Shown: in pieces, positions 11,395-29,652 of the stretch | Layout: each line of letters starts with the position of its first letter | Position numbering within the stretch: the stretch's first letter is position 1 | Origin: an uncultured Gammaproteobacteria bacterium | GTDB taxonomy: Bacteria > Patescibacteriota > Patescibacteriia > Magasanikbacterales > UBA922 | Length of the DNA: 64,000 nt | Direction of reading: 5' to 3' | Assembly: GCA_965231005.1 (NCBI GenBank) | Contig: OZ246405.1 | Coordinates: forward strand, 546,709 to 610,708 | Translations under genes and position numbers: made by a program | The notes under the pieces: generated by a model | What the model saw: the letters and a program-made list of their open reading frames with translations, nothing else | Databases searched by the model: none | What the model was told of the DNA's origin: nothing

Positions 11395-14300
11395 ATGAAA
11401 ACCAGCACATACAAAAAATTTCTTGCAAAGATACTGATTGTATCCATGCTTGTATTACAAGCAGTGCCTATGTCTTTTGTGTTTGCTGTAAGTAATACAA
11501 ATATTGAGCCTATTGCATTTGAAGAAAAACCAAAAGTAGAGATTCCTGCAGTTCCAGAAGAGCGAACACAGGTAGACTGGTCTGCAGTTAATTGGAATCA
11601 AGAAATTATTCTTCCACGAGATGAAGATGACTTTTATAACAGGATTGAAGAACTCACAGCACAGGGAAGAGAAGAAGAAATAGAAAGAATGGAACTTAAA
11701 AAGTATAAGATGAGTGACGACACAGTGCTGGACTATTATAATGTTCCGCTGAAAGTGCGAGATATTGTATATGAGTATCGCGAGCGTGTTGGTGCATTGT
11801 CATTTGTAGATCCACTGGAACTAAAAAAATACAACAAACATATTGGATCAATTATTAAAGATCTTGGCTTTGGTCCAGATGAAAGAATAGAAGAATCTTT
11901 GGATGAAACTGAATTTTCAGAGTATGAGATTGTAGAGCCAAACACAACAGGGAAGTACGAACAAATGAGAATAGATACTGTGCCTTTGGACAGTCAAGAA
12001 AAACCAACATTCACTGTAGAAAGTGTTTCGGGTCCTGCAAAGAATAATTTTTCTTTGGAAACAGTAACGTTAGAGGCATTGGCAGAGCGTGCTGCAAAGG
12101 AATTCAACGCAGTAGAGCCACAACGAAAAGAAATCAACGATGAAGGAAGTGACAACGATTCAGGAATACAGCCACTTCGAAAAGAAGTAATGAATATATT
12201 TCAGCGTATTAAACATGCACTTTTTGGTGTGGAAACTGCACATGCAGAACCAACAACACCGTTTATAAAATACTACGACGGTATAGAAGACTATCCTGTG
12301 GATTTTGGATTTTACTATCTTTCCAACGTGCAAAACCAAGACGGTAGTTTTGGCAGATTTAACAAGTACGAAATAACAGGAGCAATTGCACTCACTGCAT
12401 CATCTGCTGGCATGACCGATAACACTCAGTTTATCTCTGCAGTAAATTATTTAAAAAATACAACGCCAGTAAACAATAAAGAAAAGGCAATTAAGGCTCG
12501 GCTTATGGTTGGGCTTAAACAACCATACAAGCCACTGCTTGACGACGTCTTAAAAAGTCAAAACGAAGACGGTGGGTTTGGTATTGATCCTGGATACAGA
12601 AGTGACGTAGACACAACACTAGAAATGATTGCAGCGCTATATGCTGGAAATTATTCAATTGAAGATGGATTTCCAAAAGCAATTGCATTTGTAATGAACA
12701 ATGTAAAGGCAGACGGCACCATGCGCTACACAGTAGACGGTGCACCAAGTTTTTATCTTATGAACAAAACTGCACAGACATTGTATCCATTTAAGCACTT
12801 GTTTGTTGGAAGTAAAGGTGGTCCAAAAGTAAAAGTTCAGACAAAGACAGATCCAATTCTTGCATACTTGAATTCTGCGGTAGACAGTGAAGGAAATCTT
12901 ACTGGCTCAGATGATGTCATAGACATGGCAATGACTGCACGAACATTCTTGCTTTACCAAAAACATGCTGCAAAGCGTGATGCCTTGCGTAAGCAAGTGG
13001 TACGCAGACAGTATGCAAATGGAAGTTTTGGATCATCCTTATATGCAACATTTGAATCTATTCGCGCCCTTGAGCAGCCAGATCTTGTTCTTACTGCGCT
13101 TTCTCACACTGGCTCGCTCATAAATAAAGAAACAGCTACACTAAAATTAAGTATAAAGAACCGAGGTCAGCGTGCAATTACAAATGCAAAAATTTATACA
13201 TTTATTGACAATGTAAATGTTAATCATGTTTTAGATTTAGCTGCAAACAAAGTAGTTATTAAGCCTCAAAAAACAGTAACTCTTATTATTCCAATCACAA
13301 ATACAGTTGGGTTTATAGGAAACACAGATATCAAATTTTACGTCGAAGGAATAGACGAAGCACGATATGACAATAACTGGATAGAAAAGGATTTTGTCTT
13401 TACACCTGCAAAAGATGGAAAAGCTGCCATGCCCCTGTATTATGTTGCACATCCATACACATACAAAGACAATAGTGGAACATACAGGGCTGGACTTGCA
13501 GTTCTTCATAAACACAAAGATGATCCAAACCGAAATAATTATATTATGCGGTGGAGAAAGAAAGGTACGACCAAGTGGTTGGGCACTGGCCCATCCAAGA
13601 CGTCTGGTGGTGGTGCTCTATTTAAGATGAATCTTACCCCAGGAGAGGTATACGAGGTAACTGCAGGTGTTGTACATAAAAAAGATTTCTCTGCGACATA
13701 TTACACTGATCTCACAACAGTAGTTGCTACAAACGACAACAAAAAGTATGTTGGTGGTCTTGAAGGTGTTATTACTGTTCACAATAAACCAACCGAAGGA
13801 CTGGATGCATCAGGATACTCTTTTATCAGTGGAGGAAAAATGACAAGTGACAGAGACGGAAAAATTACGCATTCACGAGTTGGTAACGGTTCAAATATAG
13901 TGCGGGTACAGACAGAACAATACGATCCAATTTGGACACGCTTTATTGCACAACCAGGCAAAACAACAAAGAATGTCCGTGTATTTACAAAACTAAAAAA
14001 AGATACACAAAAACCTATCATTAAAGTATTTGAAATTCGAAACATGGGCAAACTTGGAGTCATAAATCAAAGAGAGGCAAATGTTTTTGTAGAAGGAGAA
14101 GACAATGTTGCGCTCAAAGAAGCAGAGTTTTATTACTGGAGTCCAAAAACAAAGGTCTGGAGTTTTCTTGGGAAAACAGCAATGGATAGCAATGGCATAC
14201 AGGCATCATTGAAGTGGTTTGTTCCTAAAGATGTTGTTGGTGAGGGGCATAAAGTAAAGGCTGTACTTATTGACTATCAAGGAAACAGATCAGATGCAAA

Positions 14301-17300
14301 AGAATTTGCATTTAAAGCTACAGACGGGACACTCCCAACAGGGACAGTAACTGTGCAGAATTTAAAAAATAATACATGGAGTATTGGAGACACGAAAAAA
14401 ATTACATGGAACATTGTTTCTCCAAACAAGCTTTTATCATTAAATGTGCGACTGTATTACGGAGACAATGGAATGAGAGTTATTAAGAGTAACTACAACG
14501 TGAACAACACGTCTGTTGACTACTTCATGCCAATTTCTTCGTCCTATGTTGGAGACAAGACATACATTCAACTGCAAGTATGTGATGTAAATTATAACTG
14601 TGCAGATATAAACTCTCCAATATTCAAAGTAGACGATAATACAGCTCCACCACTACCGCCATGGCAAAAACCAAAAGTATTTGAAGGTATTATTAGCAAG
14701 TACGGACAAGACCGTATTCTTGAACAGGTATTCCATAATCCAGATGGGTCGATTGAAATTATCTACAGAGAATTTATAGGTCAGTACCACGATTCAAAAG
14801 GACAGAATAGAAAAATTACATACAGAAAATATGCAAACGGTAGTTGGCAGACTCCTATCGTGTTAGCTGACTACTGGTACAAACAAGGAACGACTGCAAA
14901 AGTCCAGTATAGAAAATTTGACGTTGTTCGTGACAACAAGGGAGAAATTCACATGGTGTATGAACGTGTTGTAGGTGAATGGCCAACTTCGTCCGATGCC
15001 ACAGAGGTGTACTACATTCATATGGCAAAAGGGAAGAAAGTTGTTGAAAGGAATATTTCCAATAGTTCTATTGGATCAGGATCACCAGAGGTTGTCGTTT
15101 CAAGTACTGGTGTTGTATCTATTATTTGGAGAGAGGGGTATAGTGCTGCGAAAAAGGGTGGAAAAACACTCCTTTGGACAGTACAAGGAGATGGTGCAAA
15201 CTCATGGTCCAGCAGAAAAGCACTTACAGATGACATAACACCATTTGCATCCATAACACTTAACGGATCTGATCCTACGGTTATATACAAATCCAAAGAC
15301 CAATTTTTCATCCGAGAGAAAAAAGGAAGTTCTTGGAAAGCTGCTGTCCCAATTCACAATCCGTACATTGCAAAGAAAACACTCGATGCATTTGCAGAAG
15401 ACAAGGCCAAATTTGATAAGATTGTAAAACAAGATCCAAATGACGCCACACAGTATACATGGTTGCCGTCTATCAAAACATTGGATCAACTGACAAAAGT
15501 ACTTACAGACAATAACTTTACAAAAAAGAATCAAATTATTGATGCATGGAAAAAACAAGATTTCTCCAGCGGTATTTGGGGAGTAAAGTTGTTTGCGCAG
15601 GGAAATGGTTTGTATGATGCTATTTATCGTTTCCACAGCCCAGAGTCAAATTATAGGTATGACATACGTACGCTTCGAACAAAAGTAGACTCTAATTCTG
15701 GAACACATGACTTTAAGTATTATGAAAAAATTGTAGAGCGAGAAGGTAAAGATGATGTACGCAGCTTTGTTGCACTGCAGCGACCAAATGGCTCATACAA
15801 CATCTTTTATGTAAAGACAGAATATCAACCAAATGGTTCACAATTTAGACGTGCTCGTCATTTTGTATTAGACGGAAAGAATCCATATTTTGACAAACGC
15901 ACGTCAGCGATTCCAATGACCGTGACCGAACAGATACTAGCCGGAGTCCAACAAGGGGACAAGCTAATGATATTCTTTAGTGGATATATTTCTGGAGAAA
16001 AAACTGCAATATACAACACTGCAGACTACACAACGTTGATTGATTACAGAATTGATCCTATCTCTCCAAAAGATAAACAAACAAATGTAAATTCAGGTGG
16101 AACGTTTGAATGGAAGACAACAGGTGGAAGCATTGATACATATGATGTATTGTTGGGAACAAATAGAAGTGCATTGCAAAAGATAAAAACAGGATTGCAA
16201 ACTACAAAGCATGCAATGCCAACACTACAATCAAATACAACATATTATTGGCAAGTTGTTGGGCATAAAGGAAACAATCGAATTGATAGTTCTGTTTGGT
16301 CATTTGTAACTGGCAATCTTGCAACACCAGTTATGACAATTGAAGATGCAGGAAAGGCAATCCAAAGTGGTGCAACACATACCTTTGCTAAGCAATTGAT
16401 TAAAACGAAAAAGTCAGCAACAATGACCATTAAAAATGCTGGTGCAGGAAATCTTGTGCTGTCTGGAAATCCATTGGTAAGTATTGTTGGTAATGATGCA
16501 AAAGAGTTTGCAATAACAAAACAACCAGGTTCTTCTGTTGCAGCAAATGGTTCAACAAGTTTTGATGTTGCATTTGAGCCAACAACGCCTGGACAAAAAG
16601 TTGCACAACTAAAGATTACACATAACGATAAAAAAGTAACAAATCCATTTGTCATTAACTTGAAAGGAGAAGCAGTACCGTTCTTTGTAACACTTTCAGC
16701 AGATAAGAAGAGTGGAAAGAACCCTCTTGGTGTTGACTTTACTGGTTCTGTTTCTGGTGGAAGCATTCTTGCGCCGGTTGCAATTGATTTTTCAAAACAA
16801 ACTATTAAGTCATCTGGTGGAAGTGCAGATGCAACAGGCAAGATTACAATAAAGAATAATGGAAATGAAATTGATTTGACTGGAAGTACAAGTAAATTTA
16901 TTTCAATTCCATATAATGTGACAAAGAACACAATGCTTGAACTAGAATTTAAGTCTGCAAAAGTTAATAATAATCATGGAATTGGAGTCAAAACAAAACA
17001 GGGGACAGTATATTTCCAATTTGCTGGTTCTGATGTTGGAGAATCAAGTGACTTAAATTATTACGACTATGCAGGAAATGATTGGCAAACATATAAGATT
17101 CAGCTTGGTCAGTTTGTAACTGGTAGTACAGAAAAACTTACATTTGTAAGTGGAGCACTTAGTTCAAACAGTGCATTCAAAAATGTAAAAATATATGAAT
17201 CAAATGCACCAGCATATGTGTATAGCTGGGATTTTAATAATGATGGAAAAGCCGATGTTGTTGGAAAGGATCAGCAAAAACCATACCATACCTTTACTAA

Positions 17301-17385
17301 AGCTGGCACACATAAGGTTGTACTTAGTGTAAGTGATGGAACCTATGTTGTGAAAGAAGAGATTGAGATTGTTGTTTCGGGATAA
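11395..17385 (+). CDS. Giant secreted multidomain surface protein (1996 aa) with prenyltransferase/terpenoid-cyclase-like repeats and a C-terminal ASH-like + PKD module
   Basis: The leader is MKTSTYKKFLAKILIVSMLVLQAVPMSFVFA. Repeated D/NG(S/G)FG motifs (NVQNQDGSFG, SQNEDGGFGIDPGYRSDVDTTLEMIAALYAG, QYANGSFGSS) are typical of alpha/alpha-toroid repeats. The C-terminus contains TMTIKNAGAGNLVLSGNPLVSIVG...FDVAFEPTTPGQKVAQLKITHND (ASH/choice-of-anchor-like) and the PKD-like PAYVYSWDFNNDGKADVVGKDQ...GTHKVVLSVSDG. Confidence 0.75.
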   Translation: MKTSTYKKFLAKILIVSMLVLQAVPMSFVFAVSNTNIEPIAFEEKPKVEIPAVPEERTQVDWSAVNWNQEIILPRDEDDFYNRIEELTAQGREEEIERMELKKYKMSDDTVLDYYNVPLKVRDIVYEYRERVGALSFVDPLELKKYNKHIGSIIKDLGFGPDERIEESLDETEFSEYEIVEPNTTGKYEQMRIDTVPLDSQEKPTFTVESVSGPAKNNFSLETVTLEALAERAAKEFNAVEPQRKEINDEGSDNDSGIQPLRKEVMNIFQRIKHALFGVETAHAEPTTPFIKYYDGIEDYPVDFGFYYLSNVQNQDGSFGRFNKYEITGAIALTASSAGMTDNTQFISAVNYLKNTTPVNNKEKAIKARLMVGLKQPYKPLLDDVLKSQNEDGGFGIDPGYRSDVDTTLEMIAALYAGNYSIEDGFPKAIAFVMNNVKADGTMRYTVDGAPSFYLMNKTAQTLYPFKHLFVGSKGGPKVKVQTKTDPILAYLNSAVDSEGNLTGSDDVIDMAMTARTFLLYQKHAAKRDALRKQVVRRQYANGSFGSSLYATFESIRALEQPDLVLTALSHTGSLINKETATLKLSIKNRGQRAITNAKIYTFIDNVNVNHVLDLAANKVVIKPQKTVTLIIPITNTVGFIGNTDIKFYVEGIDEARYDNNWIEKDFVFTPAKDGKAAMPLYYVAHPYTYKDNSGTYRAGLAVLHKHKDDPNRNNYIMRWRKKGTTKWLGTGPSKTSGGGALFKMNLTPGEVYEVTAGVVHKKDFSATYYTDLTTVVATNDNKKYVGGLEGVITVHNKPTEGLDASGYSFISGGKMTSDRDGKITHSRVGNGSNIVRVQTEQYDPIWTRFIAQPGKTTKNVRVFTKLKKDTQKPIIKVFEIRNMGKLGVINQREANVFVEGEDNVALKEAEFYYWSPKTKVWSFLGKTAMDSNGIQASLKWFVPKDVVGEGHKVKAVLIDYQGNRSDAKEFAFKATDGTLPTGTVTVQNLKNNTWSIGDTKKITWNIVSPNKLLSLNVRLYYGDNGMRVIKSNYNVNNTSVDYFMPISSSYVGDKTYIQLQVCDVNYNCADINSPIFKVDDNTAPPLPPWQKPKVFEGIISKYGQDRILEQVFHNPDGSIEIIYREFIGQYHDSKGQNRKITYRKYANGSWQTPIVLADYWYKQGTTAKVQYRKFDVVRDNKGEIHMVYERVVGEWPTSSDATEVYYIHMAKGKKVVERNISNSSIGSGSPEVVVSSTGVVSIIWREGYSAAKKGGKTLLWTVQGDGANSWSSRKALTDDITPFASITLNGSDPTVIYKSKDQFFIREKKGSSWKAAVPIHNPYIAKKTLDAFAEDKAKFDKIVKQDPNDATQYTWLPSIKTLDQLTKVLTDNNFTKKNQIIDAWKKQDFSSGIWGVKLFAQGNGLYDAIYRFHSPESNYRYDIRTLRTKVDSNSGTHDFKYYEKIVEREGKDDVRSFVALQRPNGSYNIFYVKTEYQPNGSQFRRARHFVLDGKNPYFDKRTSAIPMTVTEQILAGVQQGDKLMIFFSGYISGEKTAIYNTADYTTLIDYRIDPISPKDKQTNVNSGGTFEWKTTGGSIDTYDVLLGTNRSALQKIKTGLQTTKHAMPTLQSNTTYYWQVVGHKGNNRIDSSVWSFVTGNLATPVMTIEDAGKAIQSGATHTFAKQLIKTKKSATMTIKNAGAGNLVLSGNPLVSIVGNDAKEFAITKQPGSSVAANGSTSFDVAFEPTTPGQKVAQLKITHNDKKVTNPFVINLKGEAVPFFVTLSADKKSGKNPLGVDFTGSVSGGSILAPVAIDFSKQTIKSSGGSADATGKITIKNNGNEIDLTGSTSKFISIPYNVTKNTMLELEFKSAKVNNNHGIGVKTKQGTVYFQFAGSDVGESSDLNYYDYAGNDWQTYKIQLGQFVTGSTEKLTFVSGALSSNSAFKNVKIYESNAPAYVYSWDFNNDGKADVVGKDQQKPYHTFTKAGTHKVVLSVSDGTYVVKEEIEIVVSG

Positions 17386-17502
17386 AAAAGAAATAACGAA
17401 ATAGTGAAATAAAGAAACAAGGGGCTTTGGACAAATGCCCCAAATTACTAAACATATGGACTTTTTAGTTTATCCCCTTATTTCCTAATTTCTTTATTCT
17501 TA

Positions 17503-17526
17503 GTTGAGCCCTTAGGGCTTTTTTTA
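17503..17526 (+). terminator. Putative intrinsic terminator after the 1996-aa gene
   Basis: The hairpin gagccc tta gggct is followed by tttttt. A second hairpin, ggggctttggacaaatgcccc, lies at 17421..17441. Confidence 0.4.
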
Positions 17527-17594
17527 ATTTAGCTTTATTTTTATTCTATATTGCCTGTGTTAGGTTCTCTTGGCGGGTACATCTACCATGGGAG

Positions 17595-17945
17595 GTGGAC
17601 ATGGTGTTTAGTGGCAATAATCAAAAGCCCAAGATTGGCATGCAGGTAGAAAAAGGGGAAGAAGGAAGAACAAGACTGTCAGACCGGATTGCAGTGATTG
17701 CAAAACACTGTGAGAAGTTCAAGATTGGTCTTTCTGCAATACCAATCCAAGATGCCCAGCAATACGCAGATACATACACGAACATGGTCATTATGTTCAA
17801 GACAGGATCTCTCGAAGAAGCCCAAGAGATGATTGGAACCGTCATCGGTCGGTTCGTCGAGGATTCCAAGAACGATAACCTTCTCGGTGAGAGAATCGAT
17901 CAATCCGAGAAACCACCTTATTACATTTACGTCGTTTTCAGTTAG
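17595..17945 (+). CDS. Small GC-rich paralog 1 (116 aa) of a GIY-YIG-clan (T5orf172-like) family
   Basis: RBS gggaggtgg. An alternative start is the ATG at 17601. It contains KFKIGLS...P....Y...Y.NMVIMFKT...E..I......KNDN...PPYYIYVV, which aligns with the two downstream paralogs. Confidence 0.6.
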   Translation: MDMVFSGNNQKPKIGMQVEKGEEGRTRLSDRIAVIAKHCEKFKIGLSAIPIQDAQQYADTYTNMVIMFKTGSLEEAQEMIGTVIGRFVEDSKNDNLLGERIDQSEKPPYYIYVVFS

Positions 17946-17969
17946 CACCCACAACGTCCTGGAGGGGAC

Positions 17970-18311
17970 ATGACAACACAAGAGAAGAAGATTGAGATAG
18001 ACCGACAAGAAGAAAAAGGCGAGCACGCTGAAGGGGAGTTGGTCGAACGCATCGGCCTTTTGGCGCTATTTTCCATACGATTCAAGATCGGCATCACCAA
18101 CGATCCAGACGAGCGTTCCAAGGCCTACAAAGACGATTACGATCGCATGGTCGTGCTCTTCCAAACAGACGATCTCGACAAGATTCGTCAGGTCGAGGAT
18201 GACATGATCGAGAAGTTCAAGGCAGAGAGCAAAAACCGAAACCAAATCGCTGGTGGTGGCGGAGACGCTGGTGATCCACCGTACTATCTGTACGTGGTCC
18301 AAAAGTTCTAG
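17970..18311 (+). CDS. Small GC-rich paralog 2 (113 aa), GIY-YIG-clan/T5orf172-like
   Basis: RBS ggagggg, 6 nt upstream. Contains RFKIGITNDPDERSKAY, RMVVLFQT, KNRN, GGGGDAGDPPYYLYVV. Confidence 0.65.
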   Translation: MTTQEKKIEIDRQEEKGEHAEGELVERIGLLALFSIRFKIGITNDPDERSKAYKDDYDRMVVLFQTDDLDKIRQVEDDMIEKFKAESKNRNQIAGGGGDAGDPPYYLYVVQKF

Positions 18312-18445
18312 TCGTGTAGGGCATTCTGCAAGGAGAAGAGGGCACAGCAGGCACTTGTCTGGTGTTGCCCTTTTTATTTTTTCTCTATTACTGATTTGCT
18401 ACCCTTTCCATTACAACCAAAACGCCTACAACCCAGGAGGGAATC

Positions 18446-18799
18446 ATGGCAAAGAAGGGGAAGCTCGTCATCAAGACGTTCACGATCGACATGGACGAGA
18501 GAACAGGCAAGGCAGGAAGGGAATCACTTCCTGTTCGAATTTCAGCGCTTGCAGGATATGCAAAGCGTTTCAAGATCGGGATTACCAATGATCCAGAGGG
18601 TCGTGCAAGTGAATACACCAGAAAGTACTCTCGCATGGTCGTCCTGTTCAAGACCAGCAGTCTTACGCGCATTCGCAACGTTGAGCGGCAGATGGTCGAT
18701 CGCTACATCGATCATCCCAAGAACGACAACAAGGTCGGTGGTGGCGGTGGTGACTACGGTGACTCGCCATACTTCTTGTACGTCGTTCTGAAGTACTAG
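18446..18799 (+). CDS. Small GC-rich paralog 3 (117 aa), GIY-YIG-clan/T5orf172-like
   Basis: RBS caggaggg. Contains RFKIGITNDPEGRASEY, RMVVLFKT, KNDN, GGGGGDYGDSPYFLYVV. A terminator-like T-run follows the gene. Confidence 0.65.
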   Translation: MAKKGKLVIKTFTIDMDERTGKAGRESLPVRISALAGYAKRFKIGITNDPEGRASEYTRKYSRMVVLFKTSSLTRIRNVERQMVDRYIDHPKNDNKVGGGGGDYGDSPYFLYVVLKY

Positions 18800-18870
18800 A
18801 AGTGTACGTCCTTACGGTCATAAGGAGAAGAGTCTCCGAGCGGTTCATTTCGCTTGGGGATTTTTTCTTT

Positions 18871-18903
18871 TTGACATTGACATATTTTCATTTTTGATAT
18901 AAA
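18871..18903 (+). promoter_or_regulatory. Candidate sigma70-like promoter upstream of the RHS gene
   Basis: Tandem ttgacattgaca with tataaa 15-21 nt downstream, in an AT-rich leader about 180 nt before the start at 19081. Confidence 0.3.
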
Positions 18904-19080: not shown

Positions 19081-22000
19081 ATGAGAACATCGACATATTA
19101 CATAAAACAGGGAAGCATTATTATATTAGCTTTCTTAACAGCGTTTATGCCGACTGCGTCTGTGTTTGCACAGACCTATGATGCTCCGTTTGACGATCCA
19201 ATCATATACGAAGAACCACCATTGTCAGATGTGGATCCTTGGACTCCTCCAGCATTTCCAGATTATTATCCAGATCCTATTGATATTGATGATAACGGTT
19301 TTCCTCTTGGAGATGATCCATCCATCCTTTCAGCAAATACATTTGACCCAACAACAGATCCATTGTTTAAACCAATGCCAGAGAATGCATGGGGAACACC
19401 ACTCTCATATGAAGTTCCATTGTACGACTGGGCAAAACCAACAACATCCTATATTGAGAATGGTCTTGTTATAAGTCCTGCAGAAATTATTTCAGATTTT
19501 GATCCAAATGAAAGTGGTATTGCAGAAATGGATGAACCAATAGCACCACTTGATTCAGCAGAACCGACTGAATCTCCGCTAGATGATGAAGATTTTGAAG
19601 ATGGAGATCCAGATGTGGGTATTGATGATATAGTTGTTCTTCCAGAAGATGGCTCTATTGATTCATCTTCAGTTGGAAGTATACCTGCAGAAGAAGGTGA
19701 ACAAGAATCAAATGATGAAGAACAAGAACCAATAGATGAGTCTTTATATCAAGTACAAGATTCATATACAGATGTAGCAAAACTTCCAAACGGAAAAACA
19801 GTTGTCCGATTATACAAAGAACCAAGAATGGTTTATGAATCAGAAGATGGATTAAAAGTTCGACCATTAAGTTGGAGTTTATTTCATGAACAAGAAGAAT
19901 CAAAGCTTAGAGACAATGGATCTGACACTTATAGATATGAAATTCCTTCTGAACAAGAAAATATTGTGGTACGTCCAGGAACGCTTGAACGGGACTTTGG
20001 GCAGACAATTATTGAGCCAGAAGCAGCACGATTTGACCAATACAGAGATGGAAATGAAATGATTACTCGGTATAGCGGTGTATATCCTGGTGTTGATATT
20101 AGTTTTCATGACATAAAAGACTACAGACAGCGTGCAATTGTTATTAATGAACCGTTGGAAGGTCTAGATGATAGTGATAATGCTATTTTTTGGGAAACAT
20201 ATTCTCTCCCAGAAGAATCAAGAGTTTCTATTGGTGCAGAAGAGTATTTAGAAGACGGATATCATGAACTTCCTTCAGATATTGTAACAATAGAACAACC
20301 AAATGGAGATAAATTTGCTGTAACTGGTGCAATTATTTTTGATCAACGAACTGCTGACCCAGTGAGCATAGATATGAATCCAACTGTTGTTGATCAAATT
20401 GTTCATGTTGATAGAGGAGCAGGGGAATTACGAATTGGGTTAAAAGCACCAGGAACATATTTAAATGATCCTGAACGTGCATATCCAGTTATTATTGATC
20501 CGTACAATTATATTTGTAAAGACAATTCTTCTCAAAATATAAAATCTTGTTCAATTGAAGAGGTATATCTTCGATATAAGACAAGTAATAGTATAACGGC
20601 AAAACAATCGAATAAGTATTTACTTCTTGGCTATATATACAGTTATGTGAAGCCAACAGGCCCGTCTCATAGACAGCCAGTCATGCGGTTCATGAAAAAT
20701 GATAAAAATTTCTTTCCAAATTTAAAAAATTATGGAACCCTTGATAAGGCAAAATTATACATGAGACGTTCAGAAGTAAATGGTTCTGGAAGTTATACAG
20801 GAAAGATTCCAACTGTTGTGCGAAGAATTTATACTCCATCAACATGGCATCCAAATTGGGTAACATTTAACTATGTTGGTAACCACCTTCATACAATCAG
20901 TGATACAACAAATGTATTTGGAAATATGAAAGAGGGAGCTTCTGCAAGTTGGGATATTACAGCACTTGTTGGATTGTGGATGACAGGGACAACAAATAAT
21001 GGATTTCTCATCCAACCTACACCTGTTTGGAATAAAAATGGGAGTGTTCCAACCTGGCCGAAGAAAATTCTTTGGTTTAGATCTTCAAAACACCCGGATG
21101 ATTATGGACCATATATTCGATTTGACTTTACAGAAGCCAAAAAACCAAATCTCACAAAGCAGAGTGATAATCTTACTGGATGGTGGAAAATAGCAAATGG
21201 TGTTAGGTACTTCCGTCCAGGAGATAAAATGACTATTAAAGCAACAGTAAAGAATGAAGGCCCTGGCTCTGCTGGAAGTTCTTCATATGTAAAGTATTAC
21301 TTGCGTCCAGGTCATTCTTCTTCAAAACCACAAAATCAATACTATCTTAGTGGCAGTCAAGATTATGTACCTAATCTTTCACAGGGGAGCACCTCAAATG
21401 AATCATACACATATACCATCCCAAGCAATAAACCGAATGGTGATTATGGTATTTTTTATAGTATTGACGCAAATAATAATGTTAGTGAAAGTGATGAAAA
21501 TGATAATATATGGTTTTGGAACATTCGGATAGAAGCAGAGAAAAAAGTAAACTTAGTTATTACTGATCCAACAATTCAAAGTTCTGTTAAACCAGGGGAA
21601 TCTGTAAATGTTTCTGGGACAGTAAAGAATATTGGAACGTCACCTTCTGAAAAGACAAAGATGTGTCATTACATATCAAAGACTACAAGTAAAAATAATA
21701 TTGTTGTAGATTATCCAAAGATTGATCCTGGAACAGTAGAAAATACAAGTGCATTAAGTCCAGGAGGAAAAGATAAAGATTCTGAAACACTTAAAATACC
21801 AACCAATTTGGCTCCAGGAGGATATTATTTGTTGTTTGAGGCAGATTGTAAAAACAATCAAAAAGAAACAAATGAAAATGACAATATTGGGTGGAAATAT
21901 TTTACTGTTGCACAACCAACCAAACCAGATCTTTTTCTTAAAAACACAAGTCACAATTACACAACAAGAAAACAAGGTGAAGTACTTAGAGTGACTTCAT

Positions 22001-25000
22001 ATGTAGAAAATAAAGGAGATGCAAACGCTGGAACATTTAAAGTTGGATATTATCTTTCAACAGATACAAGTCTTGGTGGGGATACGCTCATAGGAGAGAG
22101 AGAATTTTCTTCAGGAGTTGCCGTTGGGAAAATTGAAAATAGATTTAAAGATCTTACTATTCCAGTGAATCAAACACCTGGCAATTATTATATTATTCAT
22201 GTTGCAGACTATAAGGGGCAAATTTCTGAGAAGAATGAAAATAATAATTCTGCATATCGTGCACTTACAATAAAATCGAAAGATGAGCCAACTAATCTTA
22301 TTGCAAAGTCAAACACTCTTTTGAACACAAGTAAGACTCATTTGGGTGGACAGACAGTGCAAATGCAGGCAACGATTGAGAATAAGGGAACGAACTCAGC
22401 GAATAATATTAAAGTAAAATTACAGCTTGAAAATACAAAAACAGGATCGTTTGTTGTTCTGAAAAATGTTTCTCCACCTGGGGTCACAATTTCGGGAAAT
22501 AGTACAAAGACGGTTACATACACGGGTCTTATAGAAAATACTTGTGATTTACCATTAGAAGGAACATACGCGGCACATATTACTGTTAATAGTAATCAAG
22601 CGATTGGAGAAATAACATACAAGGATAATATTGTAAAAACAAAAGCAGGCAACACAATAAAAGTAAAACGATACAATATTTGTACGCCAAAGAAGTTTGA
22701 CGAAGACAATGATGGATTTTATGACAGCGAAGAATTTTACATGGGTTCAGACCCAATGTCAAAAGAGAGCATTCCAATTCCAGCAAGCAATTTTGAAAAG
22801 GATTTCAGTCTTCCAGTTGACTATGCAGTAGACAATTTTGGTGGTGATCCAGTCAATCTTCGAACTGGTGCAATTGAATTTACACAAACAGATTACACAC
22901 TCGACGGTCGTGGTATTCCTATTAACATAAGCAGAACATATAACAGTAGACTTGCTCATGTTAGCAGTACCATAGGTACGGGTTGGAATCATTCGTATAA
23001 TTTATATGCGTTCCAAGATCCAAATACAAAGAAAACATTTGTAAATCTTGGTGGATCAAAAGCAATAGAATTTACTACAAGTGACGGTGGAAAAACATTT
23101 TCTGTAGAACGAGGGGAAACAGGGACATTGTATTCAGACAACGGAGTACTCACATATAAACTTCTCAATGGAACAAAATATCGATTCACAAAAAGTCTTT
23201 CAGAACGGCTCTTCCTTTTAACTGAGATTGTTGACACGTTTGGTAACACAACGAAATTGAACTATAAAGATATTCGAGGTCTTCAGGTGCTTGAATCAAT
23301 TGCAGATGCATCTGGAAGAAAGGTTACATTTAAACATGGTGAAATAACCGACGATATTGAATGGAATAAAATTGTTGCTATTGAAGACACTGTTGCAAAC
23401 ACAAATAAACGACATATTGCATATTCATATGATGACAAAGGAAGACTTACAGAGGTAAAAGAAACTCGTCGAACAGGGAACAAAACTGACTATGCTGTTC
23501 GAAAATTTGGCTATGATGACAAGAACAGAATGACAACGTACACAGATCCGCGTGGAAGTATCTTGTACAACACATATGATGGAAACAATAGAATTATTGA
23601 ACAGCATGAGCATAATCCACTTACAGAAAATCCTGGAGAAAAACATCTTATTTTCAAACTTTCATATACAGGAGCAAATGCACAAATTCCTGGTAGTACT
23701 GAATGTACAACCTTAACATCGTACAGAGATACAGAGGAAAAAGATCTTGTTGTTGATCAGTATTGTTTTGACAAACATGGAAACAAGATCGCTCACAAAG
23801 ATGGAGAAGGGAATATTGAAAAATGGAAATATCATGACAATGATTTAGTTGTTGCATACACTGACAAAAAGAATAGAGTAACATCATATAACTATGATGG
23901 ACTTAAGCGTTTGCAAACAACAATATTGCCAGATTCTGATAAATATCATACAGAAATTCATTATACATACGAAGACACATTTAATCGCGTGAAGCAGATG
24001 GAAGAAAAGGTGTATGATTTATCTAATAAATTATTAGGCACACGTATTACAAGTAATGTTATTGATTCAAAAACAGGTGCAGTTACTGAAAGTACTGATG
24101 TGCTCAAAAACAAAGAATCATTTACCTATGATCAGTATGGTAATGTTTTGACTCATATAAATAAAAACAAGAATAAAACAACATTTACATACGATGAAAA
24201 AGGCAATTACCTTACAAAGCAAAGTACACAATGGAAAAAACCACTGTCGTCTACAGTCAACACACATTCAGTCGCATATGAGTATGATGATCATGGCAAT
24301 CTTACAAAGAAGACATATGCAGATGGTAAGTCTGATACATACACATACGATTCTGCCGGAAATGCGTTGTCTCACACAGATAGGCAAAATGCAACATATT
24401 CATATTCGTATGATGTAGAAAATCATCGAATTTCTGAAAAGGATCCACTAGGGACAGCGACAACATTTACATATGACAAAGATCTTGAAGGCCGTCTAAT
24501 AAAAATAGAAACAACATCAGGAGGAAAAACTATTACAGAAACTACTGATTATGATTTATTGGGTAATGTGTTAAGAGAAACAGATGCACTTAGCAGAGCT
24601 ATTTCATATGAATATGACAAAGTAAACAGGCTTGTAAAAGAGCTGCGGCCATATCATACAAAGACATTTACATATGATGTGAGTGACAACCTTACAAAAG
24701 AAATAACTGACAAAGGACACAAAACTGAGTATGCCTATGATAAACATGACCAATTAATTGAAACAAAGGTCTATACAAGTCCAACAGCATTTGTTTTAGC
24801 AAAGTCTTCATATGACCACTTTGGACGAGAAGTTTCAGCAACAGATGGAAACAACAATTCAACAATATTTACATATGATCTTGCTGATCAATTACTGACA
24901 AAGGTTGATGCAGAAAAGCAAAAAACAAGCTACTTTTACGATGCAGAAGGAAATATTATTGGTGAGTTATCTCCACGCGCACAGGCTGACAAAGGGTTAA

Positions 25001-28000
25001 GAAACCCAAATGGTCACAGTATTACATATAAATACAATGAGTTAGGACTTCTTTCCCAGCGGATTGATGCTGATGGTAAAGCAACATCATTTATTCACAA
25101 TGCAGATGGAACAGTTGCTAAACAAATTGATAGACATAATGCAGATGGAACAGAACTTTCACGTAGTCAAACATTTACCTACGATGGTGAAGGAAGAATA
25201 TTAACGGCTGCTGACCCAAGTGGTGAAAAAGAAGTATATACATATGATGCTGTTGGGAATCTCAAAACAATCAAAGACAAAGGTAGTCGAACAACAACAA
25301 TGACATATGATGGTTTTGGCAGACTGACACAACAGAAAGATCCTTCTGGAGCAATTACAACATATACATATGATAATGTTGGAAATAGAAAGACAGTAAA
25401 ACTTCCTAGTGGGCAAATTACGAATTTTGAATATGATAAGGAAAACAGATTGGTAAAAACAACAGATCCATTAAAAGGAGCAAGCGTCTATACATACGAT
25501 GTCTTTGGTAATAGAACAAGTATTCAAGATCCACGTAAAAATAAGACCTCATTTACATATGATCTTGGTGGTCAATTGGTTGAAGAAGTTGATGCACAAG
25601 GAACAAAGATCATTTACACATATGATAAGAATGGAAATCGTCTAACACAAGATGTTGCAGGGAAGAAAACATCATATGTTTTTGACAAAGTAGACAGGGT
25701 TACAAAGGTTACACATCCTGGAAATGTTGTAGAAACATTTGCATATAATGCAGATGGACTTGTGCGTGAGCAAACAAATGGAAATAATGTTAAGACAGCA
25801 TACACATATGACAATCTTGGACGAACAGTAAAAAAACAATTTGCAGATAATTCTACATATACATTTGGATATGACCAATGGAGTAATGTAAAAAAGATTA
25901 CTGATGATGTTGGAACAATTGATTATACATATTCAAATAGAAATGAACAGTTAAGTGAAAAAAGAACGTTTAGTGATTTAAACAAGTCATTTACTGTTGC
26001 AAGGACATATACACCAAATGGATTGCTTAAAGATGTAACAGATGCAGCAGGGAAAAAGATTGATTATGTCTATGACAATCGTGCAGCACTAAAATCTGTT
26101 GCACACAAGAGTAAGATTTTAGCATTATACACATATTCAAGTAATGGAACACCAACAAAAGTTACGTATGGAAATGGTGTAACAAATAATATTGCATACG
26201 ATGAATTAGATCGTGTGGGTAGTTTTGCAATTAAAAATTCATCTGGAAATAATTTGTTTACCCATGCATATACTTACGATGGGGCAAATAACAGAACAAA
26301 AACAGTTGAAAATGGAACACGAACAATTGAATATACATATGATGGACTTGATCAATTAAAAACAGAAAAAATTACTGACAAAGGAAATGTATATTCATTT
26401 GGTTTTGATTATGATAAATGGGGAAATAGGAGCGCACTGACATCTCCACATCAAAAAGCTACATATGCATATACAAATGGAACAGATCGACTTGAAAAAA
26501 CTGCATACAATGATCGTCTTTCTGTAGCAACAACATATGATAAAAATGGAAATGTAGCAAAAGAATCATTTAGTAGACTTGGAAAAGATTTGCGAAGTGT
26601 AGATTATGTATGGAATGCAAAAAATCAATTGCAATCTATTTCATATACAGACAAGAGCAGACCATCATTCATGCCAGCGCTTGAAAAGAACTCAATGACC
26701 TTTGCATATGATTTTGCTGGCAATCGTGCAAAGAAAAAAGCAAATAATCAAACAACATACTACATCAACAATGGCGTACTTGTTCAAAATGAGATTAATG
26801 GCTCAGGCTTGGTCACACTTTCTTTGGTACAAGGACTTGATACTGTTGCACGAATCAATGCAGCAGGAACAATAGAATATATTCATCAAGATGCCCTTGG
26901 TTCTACTGTGTTGATTACAGACGCGAATGAAAAAGTTGTAGAAGAATATGAATACACACCATTTGGAGAAATAGCTGGACTTGGCAATGGTAATCATTCC
27001 TATCTGTTTACAGGGCAAGAATACGACATTGAATCTGACCTTCATTATTACAATGCACGATATTACAATCCACGAACTGGACGATTCTTGTCTAGAGATC
27101 CATTCATGGGTGTTGCAGGAAGCACATTATCGAGAAATGCATATATTTATGTAGAAAATAATCCACTGAAACATACTGATTCAACAGGACTTTGGTTTGG
27201 AATAGATGATTTGATTGCTGCAGGTGTTGGGGCTGTAGTAGGTGTTGCAGCACAAGCTGTATCAGATTTGGCAACAAGTGCAATAAATGGAAAACTTGAG
27301 TTTAGTAGTTGGCAGACCTATACTGGTGCTGCTGTAGGTGGAGCTGCAGCAGGAACTGCATTCCTATATACTGGACCAGTCGGTTCTGCCCTAGTCTATG
27401 GTGCTGTATCAAATGCAACAACACAGGGATTAAACATTGCGACTGGAGTTCAAGATAGTTTTGATACAAAGAGTTTTGTTACTGAGACAGTAGCAAGTGG
27501 TGTTCTTGGTGGTGTTGGTGGAAAAATACTTCCAAAAGTAGCTCCAAAGATATTGCCGAAGATTACGTCAAAAGTGCTTCCAAAGGTTACATCTAAAGTT
27601 AATACTGCTATCAATACAGTCCGATCTAAGTTAGTACCAAAGGCTACTAAATTTACACAAGATACACTAAAATCTTTGAAAAATACAAAGGTAAAAGGTG
27701 TCTATGATATTGTTCTAAAAAATGGAAAACACTATGTTGGTCAGTCAAAAAACATTGCAAATAGGTTGTTGCAGCATATAAAGAACAAAAAGTTTTCTCT
27801 AGATGATATTGCAAATATTAAGATAAAGGAAGTTGTTGGTGGTAAAACAGCTCGGGAAATAGTAGAGCAACGAATAATAAATTCTCTTGGTGGTATTAGA
27901 GGAGGCAATCTTCTAAATGTAGTAAATCCAATAGGAAAAGCAAGACAATACCTTATGAATCAAGCGCCAAAAATAGTTAGATCAGGCTGGTTCTCTAAGA

Positions 28001-28116
28001 TCTTTGGTGCAGGACCAAAGATAGGAGGAGCAGCGACTACGCAGCAGATACTAGGTGCAACAGGAGTTGGTATGGGAATTACTGGATTGAATTATGCATT
28101 TCAAGATAATAAATAA
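19081..28116 (+). CDS. RHS/YD-repeat polymorphic toxin (3011 aa) with CARDB-like repeats and a C-terminal GIY-YIG nuclease tip
   Basis: The leader is MRTSTYYIKQGSIIILAFLTAFMPTASVFA, followed by an Asp/Pro-rich region. Several CARDB-like modules end in E.NE.NN motifs. The RHS core N-terminus is RTGAIEFTQTDYTLDGRGIPINISRTYNS. There are dozens of YTYD..GN YD repeats. The RHS core end is YYNARYYNPRTGRFLSRDPFMGVAGSTLSRNAYIYVENNPLKHTDSTGLW. In the tip, KGVYDIVLKNGKHYVGQSKNIANRLLQH matches GIY-x10-YIG-x-R..H, with downstream E (AREIVEQ) and N (LLNVVN). Confidence 0.88.
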   Translation: MRTSTYYIKQGSIIILAFLTAFMPTASVFAQTYDAPFDDPIIYEEPPLSDVDPWTPPAFPDYYPDPIDIDDNGFPLGDDPSILSANTFDPTTDPLFKPMPENAWGTPLSYEVPLYDWAKPTTSYIENGLVISPAEIISDFDPNESGIAEMDEPIAPLDSAEPTESPLDDEDFEDGDPDVGIDDIVVLPEDGSIDSSSVGSIPAEEGEQESNDEEQEPIDESLYQVQDSYTDVAKLPNGKTVVRLYKEPRMVYESEDGLKVRPLSWSLFHEQEESKLRDNGSDTYRYEIPSEQENIVVRPGTLERDFGQTIIEPEAARFDQYRDGNEMITRYSGVYPGVDISFHDIKDYRQRAIVINEPLEGLDDSDNAIFWETYSLPEESRVSIGAEEYLEDGYHELPSDIVTIEQPNGDKFAVTGAIIFDQRTADPVSIDMNPTVVDQIVHVDRGAGELRIGLKAPGTYLNDPERAYPVIIDPYNYICKDNSSQNIKSCSIEEVYLRYKTSNSITAKQSNKYLLLGYIYSYVKPTGPSHRQPVMRFMKNDKNFFPNLKNYGTLDKAKLYMRRSEVNGSGSYTGKIPTVVRRIYTPSTWHPNWVTFNYVGNHLHTISDTTNVFGNMKEGASASWDITALVGLWMTGTTNNGFLIQPTPVWNKNGSVPTWPKKILWFRSSKHPDDYGPYIRFDFTEAKKPNLTKQSDNLTGWWKIANGVRYFRPGDKMTIKATVKNEGPGSAGSSSYVKYYLRPGHSSSKPQNQYYLSGSQDYVPNLSQGSTSNESYTYTIPSNKPNGDYGIFYSIDANNNVSESDENDNIWFWNIRIEAEKKVNLVITDPTIQSSVKPGESVNVSGTVKNIGTSPSEKTKMCHYISKTTSKNNIVVDYPKIDPGTVENTSALSPGGKDKDSETLKIPTNLAPGGYYLLFEADCKNNQKETNENDNIGWKYFTVAQPTKPDLFLKNTSHNYTTRKQGEVLRVTSYVENKGDANAGTFKVGYYLSTDTSLGGDTLIGEREFSSGVAVGKIENRFKDLTIPVNQTPGNYYIIHVADYKGQISEKNENNNSAYRALTIKSKDEPTNLIAKSNTLLNTSKTHLGGQTVQMQATIENKGTNSANNIKVKLQLENTKTGSFVVLKNVSPPGVTISGNSTKTVTYTGLIENTCDLPLEGTYAAHITVNSNQAIGEITYKDNIVKTKAGNTIKVKRYNICTPKKFDEDNDGFYDSEEFYMGSDPMSKESIPIPASNFEKDFSLPVDYAVDNFGGDPVNLRTGAIEFTQTDYTLDGRGIPINISRTYNSRLAHVSSTIGTGWNHSYNLYAFQDPNTKKTFVNLGGSKAIEFTTSDGGKTFSVERGETGTLYSDNGVLTYKLLNGTKYRFTKSLSERLFLLTEIVDTFGNTTKLNYKDIRGLQVLESIADASGRKVTFKHGEITDDIEWNKIVAIEDTVANTNKRHIAYSYDDKGRLTEVKETRRTGNKTDYAVRKFGYDDKNRMTTYTDPRGSILYNTYDGNNRIIEQHEHNPLTENPGEKHLIFKLSYTGANAQIPGSTECTTLTSYRDTEEKDLVVDQYCFDKHGNKIAHKDGEGNIEKWKYHDNDLVVAYTDKKNRVTSYNYDGLKRLQTTILPDSDKYHTEIHYTYEDTFNRVKQMEEKVYDLSNKLLGTRITSNVIDSKTGAVTESTDVLKNKESFTYDQYGNVLTHINKNKNKTTFTYDEKGNYLTKQSTQWKKPLSSTVNTHSVAYEYDDHGNLTKKTYADGKSDTYTYDSAGNALSHTDRQNATYSYSYDVENHRISEKDPLGTATTFTYDKDLEGRLIKIETTSGGKTITETTDYDLLGNVLRETDALSRAISYEYDKVNRLVKELRPYHTKTFTYDVSDNLTKEITDKGHKTEYAYDKHDQLIETKVYTSPTAFVLAKSSYDHFGREVSATDGNNNSTIFTYDLADQLLTKVDAEKQKTSYFYDAEGNIIGELSPRAQADKGLRNPNGHSITYKYNELGLLSQRIDADGKATSFIHNADGTVAKQIDRHNADGTELSRSQTFTYDGEGRILTAADPSGEKEVYTYDAVGNLKTIKDKGSRTTTMTYDGFGRLTQQKDPSGAITTYTYDNVGNRKTVKLPSGQITNFEYDKENRLVKTTDPLKGASVYTYDVFGNRTSIQDPRKNKTSFTYDLGGQLVEEVDAQGTKIIYTYDKNGNRLTQDVAGKKTSYVFDKVDRVTKVTHPGNVVETFAYNADGLVREQTNGNNVKTAYTYDNLGRTVKKQFADNSTYTFGYDQWSNVKKITDDVGTIDYTYSNRNEQLSEKRTFSDLNKSFTVARTYTPNGLLKDVTDAAGKKIDYVYDNRAALKSVAHKSKILALYTYSSNGTPTKVTYGNGVTNNIAYDELDRVGSFAIKNSSGNNLFTHAYTYDGANNRTKTVENGTRTIEYTYDGLDQLKTEKITDKGNVYSFGFDYDKWGNRSALTSPHQKATYAYTNGTDRLEKTAYNDRLSVATTYDKNGNVAKESFSRLGKDLRSVDYVWNAKNQLQSISYTDKSRPSFMPALEKNSMTFAYDFAGNRAKKKANNQTTYYINNGVLVQNEINGSGLVTLSLVQGLDTVARINAAGTIEYIHQDALGSTVLITDANEKVVEEYEYTPFGEIAGLGNGNHSYLFTGQEYDIESDLHYYNARYYNPRTGRFLSRDPFMGVAGSTLSRNAYIYVENNPLKHTDSTGLWFGIDDLIAAGVGAVVGVAAQAVSDLATSAINGKLEFSSWQTYTGAAVGGAAAGTAFLYTGPVGSALVYGAVSNATTQGLNIATGVQDSFDTKSFVTETVASGVLGGVGGKILPKVAPKILPKITSKVLPKVTSKVNTAINTVRSKLVPKATKFTQDTLKSLKNTKVKGVYDIVLKNGKHYVGQSKNIANRLLQHIKNKKFSLDDIANIKIKEVVGGKTAREIVEQRIINSLGGIRGGNLLNVVNPIGKARQYLMNQAPKIVRSGWFSKIFGAGPKIGGAATTQQILGATGVGMGITGLNYAFQDNK

Positions 28117-29004: not shown

Positions 29005-29652
29005 ATGAAAGAGGTAGATGAGAAGACAAAAGAATTACTTACAGAGTATTTTGCAGAACTTCGAAAGGTTGGATATGATATTAAAGATACTTATTACTTT
29101 GTGAACAATGAAGATCCTTCACCTGAAGTTATCAAAATTATCTTGAAGTATATACCACTTATTGACAATTCTGTTTATAAAGAAGGTCTTATCAAGAGTA
29201 TTTCTGTAAAAGGAATTAAGGATGCAGTTCCCATATTGCTGAATGAATATCGTAAGAGTCATAATTCACAGACCATGTGGATTATAGGAAATGCACTCTG
29301 GGCGATTCAGGATAATGCAATTGCAGATGAGATCATTGAGCTTCTTGATTCTGAATTTGTTCTTGAAGATCAAGATGGTTCATTAGAAAATACCGATGAT
29401 ATAAAGCCTACGGTGGTGCGTGCAAAAGAAACACTGCTCTGGGCTCTTGGTGCAACAAAAGATAAAAAGGCAATTCCTATATTAAAGAAATATTTAACAG
29501 ATGAGCTATTGGCAGGTCATGCCCTGGAAGGACTTAAATATTTTAAAGATCCTCAATTGATACCTGATGTTAAATCTCTCCTTAAACATGAAAAAAAGTG
29601 GGTGAGGGATAAGGCAAAAAGATATATTAATCGTTTGGAAAAACTCAAGTAA
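29005..29652 (+). CDS. HEAT/ARM-like repeat protein (215 aa)
   Basis: Helical repeats with the PBS-lyase/HEAT flavour (AVPILLNEYRKSHNSQTMWIIGNALWAI, KAIPILKKYLTDELLAGHALEGLKYFKDPQLIPDVKSLLKHEKKWVRDKA). It sits between the RHS cassette and the next secreted protein. Confidence 0.5.
   Translation: MKEVDEKTKELLTEYFAELRKVGYDIKDTYYFVNNEDPSPEVIKIILKYIPLIDNSVYKEGLIKSISVKGIKDAVPILLNEYRKSHNSQTMWIIGNALWAIQDNAIADEIIELLDSEFVLEDQDGSLENTDDIKPTVVRAKETLLWALGATKDKKAIPILKKYLTDELLAGHALEGLKYFKDPQLIPDVKSLLKHEKKWVRDKAKRYINRLEKLK

Follow-up and report, generated by a model that had tools for sequence, protein, structure and literature searches.

What is encoded by the short GC-rich segment that lies between two giant genes in a bacterial chromosome, and does it belong to the RHS toxin gene that follows it? 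The question arises in a 64,000-nucleotide stretch of contig OZ246405.1 (assembly GCA_965231005.1), hereafter the window, where three tandem open reading frames (ORFs) on the + strand sit between the gene of a 1996-residue surface protein (11395-17385) and that of a 3011-residue RHS protein (19081-28116). We found it moderately probable that the triplet is a horizontally acquired cassette of three paralogs from an unnamed family of GIY-YIG-clan enzymes that stand alone, are about 110 residues long and are probably circularly permuted, that paralogs 2 and 3 are nucleases, and that the triplet is not an accessory of the RHS toxin. The three genes are as follows.

17601 to 17945, + strand: paralog 1, 114 amino acids (aa), with an alternative GTG start at 17595; isoelectric point (pI) 5.4; E-value of 9.4e-24 with the hidden Markov model (HMM) of the family
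17970 to 18311, + strand: paralog 2, 113 aa; pI 4.8; family HMM E-value 1.1e-32
18446 to 18799, + strand: paralog 3, 117 aa; pI 9.9; family HMM E-value 2.6e-35

Pairwise BLASTP comparisons revealed gapless alignments with identities of 34% between paralogs 1 and 2 (E 4e-20), 34% between paralogs 1 and 3 (E 5e-22) and 49% between paralogs 2 and 3 (E 1e-29). Together with the ORF list and the sequence itself, they confirm the description given in an initial annotation of this DNA, namely three homologous genes on the + strand, each with a ribosome-binding site of the GGAGG type. Paralog 2 has an intact motif set (RFKIGITNDPDER, Tyr, Glu, Asn, GGGG and PPYYLYVV), and paralog 3 likewise keeps the full set. 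The shared motifs that were quoted initially are present, but the protein that was described as ending without the Gly run, paralog 1, lacks more than that. In paralog 1, the conserved Arg is replaced by Asp (position R53 in paralog 3 numbering), the conserved Glu by Ile (E80) and GGGG by GERID; FKIG, the Pro, Tyr57, the Asn and PPYYIYVV are retained. As judged from these residues, paralog 1 is predicted to be a catalytically degenerate copy, and paralogs 2 and 3 are predicted to be catalytically competent.

A word-indexed search revealed only five relatives. An exhaustive profile search extended this to 957 representatives of clusters defined at 50% identity (E≤1e-3), with 231 at E≤1e-10. Most members are solo, single-domain proteins of 105-120 aa, and their source annotations read hypothetical protein with one exception, a JGI 'predicted GIY-YIG superfamily endonuclease' that carries a precomputed T5orf172 (PF10544) match. 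Scans with a smaller alignment found seven genome loci, no viral loci and three short metagenome loci, and no viral relative was found in 2.9 million IMG/VR viral contigs scanned for the core pattern of the family. NCBIfam gave no meaningful match, PADLOC-DB gave no match at E≤10 for any of the three window proteins, which leaves their membership of a known anti-phage defence system unsupported, and literature searches on permuted GIY-YIG domains or on the family in defence islands found nothing relevant. The family is unnamed, large and sporadically distributed, and it is not described in the libraries or the literature searched.

The near-invariant positions in 207 aligned domains (again in paralog 3 numbering) are G21, K43, G45, T47, P50, R53, Y/H57, M64, E80, N95, G99-G102 and Y112. 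K43 is found in 175 of these domains (Tyr in 13), G45 in 202, R53 in 197, Y/H57 in 190, E80 in 197 and N95 in 195, and Y112 is conserved in 200 of 200 domains. The Arg lies at +10 from the K/Y-I-G motif and the Tyr/His at Arg+4. Every near-invariant position is present in paralogs 2 and 3. The median pI of the family is 9.2; paralog 3 is likewise basic, and paralogs 1 and 2 are acidic. A few relatives carry additional segments, all read from the sequence: P0047 joins the mini GIY-YIG domain to a C-terminal HIT-type domain with an HxHxH motif, P0048 and P0143 have N-terminal CCHC zinc knuckles fused to it, and P0051, P0052 and P0073 have C-terminal hydrophobic tails.

The proteins had been assigned to the GIY-YIG clan, with a MUG113- or T5orf172-like core, on the spacing of a few residues. 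Taken singly, the window proteins stay below the Pfam cutoffs, which are 22.3 bits for MUG113, 20 bits for T5orf172 and 22.6 bits for GIY-YIG. Paralog 2 scored 20.4 bits with MUG113 and 16.6 bits with T5orf172, paralog 3 scored 19.6 and 19.1 bits, and paralog 1 had no Pfam match. At the level of the family, the assignment holds: MUG113 was matched by 69 of 110 members (best E 1.7e-8), T5orf172 by 59 (best E 1.5e-5), PF01541 GIY-YIG by 6 (best E 4.5e-5) and phrog_681 'endonuclease' by 26. Family members with a canonical YVG also align to SLX1 from the YIG motif through β3 into the Glu helix, although these alignments are marginal (E 0.07-1), and an hmmsearch of the family profile against PDB sequences found SLX1 only, at E=1.

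For paralog 3, AlphaFold with 110 sequences as input gave a confident model, with a predicted local distance difference test score (pLDDT) of 89 and a predicted template modeling score (pTM) of 0.79. It consists of a strand (13-19), two helices (21-26 and 28-38), the KIG strand (41-47), a helix that carries the Arg (50-56), a strand (63-70), a helix that carries the Glu (73-87), a long loop with the Asn and the GGGG run, and a C-terminal strand (109-116). Most of the clan hallmarks are found on these elements: K/Y-I-G lies on strand 41-47, the Arg follows about 10 residues later on helix 50-56, the Glu lies on helix 73-87 after β3, and the Asn (N95) comes after it within the 12-15 residues expected for the clan, with paralog 1 lacking the Arg and the Glu. 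One hallmark is absent, as the family consensus has no conserved Tyr at -10 before KIG, where helix 28-38 is found instead. Foldseek revealed nothing at E≤0.001 when the model was compared with the PDB. The only significant whole-fold matches, obtained in a comparison with predicted viral structures, were two eukaryotic-virus proteins of about 200 aa with 19% identity: the Yasminevirus 'GIY-YIG domain-containing protein' A0A5K0U8Q9 (E 9.5e-8, query-normalized TM-score (TMq) 0.71) and the Klosneuvirus protein A0A1V0SLJ9 (E 9e-4, TMq 0.66, 114 columns at 3.1 Å). The Foldseek match to a giant-virus GIY-YIG protein and the marginal SLX1 alignments agree with the profile matches, and membership of the family in the GIY-YIG clan (Pfam CL0418) is well supported by sequence comparison and loosely by structure.

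In canonical GIY-YIG domains, the YIG strand is one arm of a hairpin whose other arm is a Tyr-bearing strand 10-11 residues ahead of YIG. The model of paralog 3 has no strand directly before KIG, and the only invariant Tyr of the family is found on the C-terminal strand. Mean-field direct-coupling analysis of 196 domain sequences, with an effective number of 173, revealed an antiparallel band between the KIG strand and the C-terminal strand (46-111, rank 2 overall; 43-114; 45-112) with a constant sum of 157; 5 of the 56 cells were above the 99th percentile. The C-terminal strand and β3 showed a weaker antiparallel band (63-115, 69-109 and 70-108), and the N-terminal strand coupled in parallel with β3. 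Covariation was also found between the GGGG loop and E80, N95 and T47, between R53 and E80, and between G45 and E80. These couplings suggest the sheet order KIG strand, C-terminal strand, β3, N-terminal strand, which would place the C-terminal strand where we take β1 to sit in solved GIY-YIG domains. The idea that the fold is circularly permuted, raised initially from the C-terminal position of the YYLYVV strand, is therefore supported by both the model and the covariation, and we consider it rather probable that the C-terminal strand supplies the first strand of the GIY-YIG core.

In the mechanism that we favor, the C-terminal YYLYVV strand, with its invariant Tyr, would lie next to the KIG strand in the position of the N-terminal GIY strand, and the Gly-rich loop would close over the Glu/Asn site. 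By analogy with the active enzyme R.Hpy188I, which has a corresponding constellation, paralogs 2 and 3 may be one-metal phosphodiesterases that cut nucleic acid; the basic median pI of the family and its zinc-knuckle fusions are hints in this direction. The enzymes would act as oligomers that admit dead subunits, with paralog 1 as a putative non-catalytic partner, and their most likely role would be that of a small selfish or defence-island nuclease.

The oligomer proposal draws on natural fusions. Eleven of the retrieved family proteins carry two or three copies of the domain per chain, and domains without the Arg or the Glu are almost confined to the extra copies in such fusions and to paralog 1; examples are P0007, with two degenerate copies and one intact copy, P0125 and P0074. 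That live and dead copies are repeatedly found together suggests that the proteins function as oligomers. As a general rule, one GIY-YIG site cuts one strand, and an oligomer would fit this rule. A bolder extension, which we regard as doubtful, is that hetero-oligomers of live and dead subunits (here two live and one dead; elsewhere fused) of a permuted mini GIY-YIG enzyme constitute an unrecognized single-gene defence or addiction nuclease of defence islands, or a nucleotide-signal phosphodiesterase in the loci next to a cyclic oligonucleotide-based antiphage signaling system (CBASS), and that the active basic paralog is held in check by those that are dead or acidic.

To place the triplet among its relatives, we compared the neighborhoods of homologues at about 17 other distinct loci, a small sample for which precomputed gene calls were used. 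No conserved partner gene was found among the loci sampled. Several contexts, with CBASS, restriction-modification or toxin-antitoxin genes or integrases, resembled defence islands or mobile elements. The homologues P0006 and P0012 lie 87 and 11 nucleotides (nt) 3' of the patatin effector in CBASS-like operons that encode a Cap2-type E1/E2/JAB protein and the patatin (L002 3853-4212 and the P0012 locus). Because both come from one closely related subclade, this adjacency amounts to about one independent observation, and the family may have an accessory role in that subclade. Another homologue overlaps the start of a pair comprising a Dam-type methyltransferase and a SacI-like restriction enzyme, in an element with excisionase-like genes; one adjoins type I restriction-modification genes and an AAA_15 ATPase; others stand beside PIN/MazE and HNH genes; and one is near an integrase and an M78/HTH pair. 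A cobalamin biosynthesis operon that is standard in all other respects contains a homologue between cbtA and cobO (L015 7001-7327, L016 2887-3213), and in Acidobacteriota the family was seen next to large surface proteins. The suggestion in the initial annotation that the triplet could be a small defence or addiction module gains circumstantial support from the defence-island contexts. Two further observations were made in this sample. On a complete Bryobacterales chromosome, the family copy at L013 7956-8272 contains a frameshift and gives two separate HMM matches, which indicates a decaying gene, and one Dehalococcoidia locus has two family copies.

The foreign composition of the triplet, already described initially, was confirmed. 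The G+C contents of paralogs 1, 2 and 3 are 0.44, 0.50 and 0.51 compared with 0.37 for the window, and their G+C contents at third codon positions (GC3) are 0.48, 0.61 and 0.62 compared with 0.25±0.08 for 30 other window genes. Only the ORF at 2281-3471 and a tRNA region are equally GC-rich in the window. G+C content changes in sharp steps at about 17560 and 18870. The remainder of the window is ordinary chromosome, with genes for ClpP, SMC, S16, HisRS, signal peptidase, FtsA and FtsZ; the FtsZ is 70-73% identical to that of Candidatus Magasanikbacteria, the source contig measures 1.23 Mb, and the host is a Magasanikbacteria-like bacterium of the candidate phyla radiation (CPR)/Patescibacteria. 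Homologues are found in genomes of 56-67% G+C from Acidobacteriota, Dehalococcoidia and Gammaproteobacteria, which fits the composition of the triplet. On these compositional grounds, we take the triplet to be horizontally acquired.

The signals around the three genes were as follows; the ribosome-binding sites were read from the sequence.

17506 to 17527, + strand: terminator-like hairpin belonging to the giant gene upstream; about 35 nt beyond it, at about 17560, the GC-rich island begins
17590 to 17595, + strand: ribosome-binding site GGGAGG of paralog 1, 5 nt 5' of the ATG at 17601
17961 to 17965, + strand: ribosome-binding site GGAGG of paralog 2, 4 nt 5' of the ATG
18340 to 18382, + strand: terminator-like G+C-rich hairpin and T run 3' of paralog 2 (-30.6 kcal/mol, z -3.55)
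18435 to 18440, + strand: ribosome-binding site AGGAGG of paralog 3, 5 nt 5' of the ATG
18827 to 18876, + strand: terminator-like hairpin and T run 3' of paralog 3 (-32.2 kcal/mol, z -5.45)

The first ORF, which had been placed at 17595, is real, but its start is more likely the ATG at 17601 than the GTG at 17595, because the ATG agrees with the database protein P0010 and has GGGAGG 5 nt upstream, and the GTG falls within this ribosome-binding site. Co-transcription of paralogs 1 and 2 is probable. The hairpin at 18340-18382 splits the unit of paralogs 1 and 2 from paralog 3, and the hairpin at 18827-18876 forms the right edge of the GC-rich island. Given these stable hairpins with T runs 3' of paralogs 2 and 3, and the hairpin 3' of the giant gene, the triplet looks like two transcription units of its own, one with paralogs 1 and 2 and one with paralog 3. 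A non-coding RNA was also considered as an explanation of the GC-rich segment and was rejected: no Rfam family covers the triplet segment, and the sole match was a weak one on a terminator hairpin.

Downstream of the triplet, the RHS protein contains RHS repeats, CARDB and DUF6531, and it ends in a toxin tip that is given here for context only.

27694 to 27882, + strand: GIY-YIG toxin tip of the RHS protein in canonical order (aa 2872-2934; 22.4 bits against a cutoff of 22.6)

The tip has the canonical motif GVY-x9-YVG-x9-R, and no PDB sequence match was found for it. Upon alignment of the tip with the family profile, hhalign gave a probability of 1.1% over 9 aligned columns, that is, no specific similarity. 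Gly/Ala-rich hydrophobic stretches were observed on both sides of the tip in the C-terminal part of the RHS gene (27400-28116, + strand). Directly downstream of the RHS gene are an LRR gene (28119-28982) and a HEAT gene (29005-29652), whose products are candidate immunity proteins. Since the tip has no specific similarity to the family and the LRR and HEAT genes occupy immunity-like positions, the two adjacent GIY-YIG-clan entities look like a coincidence in a variable region rich in giant surface protein genes.

Alternative explanations of the triplet were weighed against this background. That the segment is an assembly chimera or does not hold real genes, a GC-rich piece having been mis-joined into an AT-rich genome, would be in keeping with the sharp G+C jumps and with a Logan contig that ends at 17456. 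The same Logan contig, however, spans both compositional transitions and is 100% identical to the window, and two ENA contigs, one of 57 kb (run ERR2281800) and one of 11.9 kb (run ERR2281801), extend from the giant gene across the triplet to within the RHS gene and match the window at 100% identity. Because three assemblies from two sequencing runs reproduce both junctions, the chimera that had been named as a possible refutation is out; the ORFs, moreover, score E 1e-24 to 1e-35 against the family profile, and the probability left to this explanation is negligible. A link to the RHS toxin had appeared attractive, as the gene immediately downstream of the triplet encodes an RHS protein with a GIY-YIG tip, and the triplet could then encode immunity proteins, spare toxin cassettes or nuclease decoys, the last of which would suit paralog 1 with its predicted loss of catalysis. 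We found this link very improbable. Neither an RHS gene nor nearby RHS repeats were found at any of the other family loci sampled, which argues against a functional tie, and the hhalign result gives no support to the specific relation to the tip that had been proposed. Immunity genes and orphan cassettes of polymorphic toxin systems are normally downstream of the toxin, the place taken here by the LRR and HEAT genes, whereas the triplet is upstream, with its own ribosome-binding sites and in its own terminated transcription units. Near-invariant catalytic residues throughout the family do not fit a decoy role, paralog 1 being a possible exception.

Three other readings concern what the proteins do. 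Free-standing homing endonucleases, selfish genes that copy themselves into a specific cut target, would account for the sporadic distribution, the contexts that vary from locus to locus, the foreign composition of the triplet, the homologue inside the cobalamin operon and the frameshifted Bryobacterales copy. The family is also related to T5orf172, and T5orf172 genes are described as homing endonuclease genes in ICP1 phages (PMC10448857). We nevertheless consider this unlikely: the proteins have no DNA-binding or target-recognition domain, the viral contigs scanned for the core pattern held no relative, the insertion inside a conserved operon was seen at one locus only, and when the surroundings of the island were searched for direct repeats or the scar of an insertion, only paralog-derived and T-rich matches were returned, with no flanking repeats or duplicated target seen. 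No intron or intein association turned up either, though no search was aimed at that. Known GIY-YIG homing enzymes, finally, are about twice the size of these proteins of about 110 aa. A different proposal holds that the paralogs hydrolyze small phosphodiesters, such as cyclic oligonucleotide signals or adenylylated ends, and not polymers. It would give a part to the near-invariant GGGG loop, which is phosphate-binding-like and covaries with the catalytic Glu and Asn, and it is consistent with the position of P0006 and P0012 directly after the CBASS patatin effector, with the HIT nucleotide hydrolase domain of P0047 and with the lack of a DNA-binding domain in the family. To our knowledge, though, all characterized GIY-YIG-clan enzymes act on nucleic-acid polymers; the CBASS neighbors count as about one observation, most loci have no signaling system nearby, and the zinc-knuckle fusions and the basic median pI point to polymers, which leaves this proposal quite unlikely. 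The domain may instead have been domesticated to a non-catalytic DNA-binding or regulatory role. Paralog 1 has lost the Arg, the Glu and the Gly loop, yet it keeps the fold residues, an intact ORF and a ribosome-binding site, and the T5orf172-derived repressor of the Vibrio PLE satellite, described as a domesticated T5orf172 endonuclease (bioRxiv 10.1101/2020.11.28.402263), sets a precedent. Retention of the whole catalytic constellation in paralogs 2 and 3 and in about 95% of family domains would be unexpected without catalysis, and domestication, which fits paralog 1 at best, is decidedly improbable for the triplet.

The reading that we prefer, a cassette of stand-alone and probably permuted GIY-YIG-clan enzymes with two nucleases, also has points against it. 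No window protein reaches a Pfam gathering score, and paralog 1 matches nothing. For the strand order, the basis is covariation in a set of no more than about 173 effective sequences. When artificially permuted sequences, with the C-terminal strand placed before KIG, were rescanned with Pfam, the T5orf172 score gained about 1-4 bits and the match reached back to model position 2-3; this rescan is uninformative because a reversed-strand control scored as well. The AlphaFold model of the two-copy fusion P0008 had a pLDDT of 86, but its pTM, at 0.65, is too low to support a fixed arrangement of the two domains. In addition, the acidic pI values of paralogs 1 and 2 are unusual for nucleic-acid enzymes, and the family has neither a DNA-binding domain nor a conserved partner.

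Elsewhere in the window, several features were observed that are separate from the triplet. At 17384-17498, just 3' of the giant gene, there is an imperfect inverted repeat of 38 nt, with arms that are 74% complementary and 39 nt apart, and the Logan contig end at 17456 falls inside it. The GC-rich ORF at 2281-3471 (+ strand, 396 aa; G+C 0.51, GC3 0.53) has no Pfam match and no relation to the triplet family; it is either another segment of foreign composition or, possibly, a spurious ORF. The GC-rich stretch at 36650-38750 (about 0.49) contains tRNA-Val (37090-37164), tRNA-Ile (37392-37466) and a weak tRNA-Val-like element at 37307-37378, which was called by ARAGORN and scored 25 bits in Rfam, short of the cutoff of 29; the part from 37470 to 38750 contains ORFs that overlap on both strands and has no Rfam match. 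On the - strand at 35768-36424, a 217-aa protein has several Tudor/Agenet-type domain matches (E 1e-12 to 1e-6), which is unusual in a CPR bacterium. Two surface proteins of 697 and 3700 aa are encoded at 42380-44473 and 44540-55642 (+ strand), with a T4SS_pilin domain first and then Ig-like domains, and they are followed by small TSP3-repeat proteins at 55646-56938.

If the permutation is true, it would be the first such arrangement found for the GIY-YIG fold in the literature searched, and it would mean that the opposite terminus of the protein can contribute the strand with the catalytic Tyr. It would also matter for fold classification and for profile models, which now miss the family. As the family is sizeable, unnamed and found in defence and mobile regions, its members can reasonably be considered candidates for small defence or selfish nucleases that stand alone, and the pattern of live plus dead copies offers a natural system for studies of pseudo-enzyme partners. 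For this genome, the analysis removes a tempting link between the triplet and the RHS toxin, and it documents gene uptake from high-GC donors by a reduced CPR bacterium.

Comparison with known GIY-YIG proteins revealed both shared and distinct features. MUG113 (PF13455) and T5orf172 (PF10544) are the best profile matches of the family, with K-I-G in place of Y-I-G followed by the Thr, the Arg and the Glu helix in common. The alignment runs from KIG to just before the conserved Asn and covers positions 1-51 of 73 in MUG113 and 10-69 of 101 in T5orf172; model positions 1-9 of T5orf172, which form the first strand, have no counterpart before KIG in the family. In contrast to both, the family has a conserved N-terminal strand, a TG-x-P turn, two helices, the GGGG loop and the C-terminal strand with the invariant Tyr; it has no accessory DNA-binding domains and was not found in viral contigs. 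The motif of SLX1 (4XLG, 7CQ2) that resembles YIGxTxNPxRRxxQH corresponds to KIGITNDPxxR...Y/H in the family, and the W-E-M-x-x-x-V-Y-G...Glu block of SLX1 aligns with Y-D-E-M-I-V-L-Y...E. The bacterial YhbQ/UPF0213 group comprises stand-alone GIY-YIG domains of the SLX1/URI type, and YhbQ-like proteins are also single-domain proteins of about 100 aa. In SLX1 and YhbQ, however, the GIY strand is N-terminal to YIG, and in the SLX1 alignment this stretch falls on helix B of the family. SLX1 furthermore requires SLX4 and has a RING domain, whereas the family is patchy, lies in foreign islands and is not housekeeping.

A corresponding set of catalytic residues is found in the active enzyme R.Hpy188I, a GIY-YIG type II restriction endonuclease, in which Y63, K73, R84, Y88, E149 and Q169 form the site and a Lys replaces the YIG Tyr (PMC2630997). 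These residues correspond to Y112, K43, R53, Y57, E80 and N95 in the family, and the Tyr lies at Arg+4 in both. R.Hpy188I has the canonical strand order, is larger, contains insertions and is paired with a methyltransferase; only one family homologue seen abuts a methyltransferase and restriction-enzyme pair. The catalytic domains of I-TevI and UvrC (1LN0, 1YCZ) have a similar spacing, with 10 residues from YIG to the Arg and 13-15 from the Glu to the Asn. In both, the first strand is N-terminal and the domain is part of a larger DNA-binding protein, unlike the family represented by the triplet.

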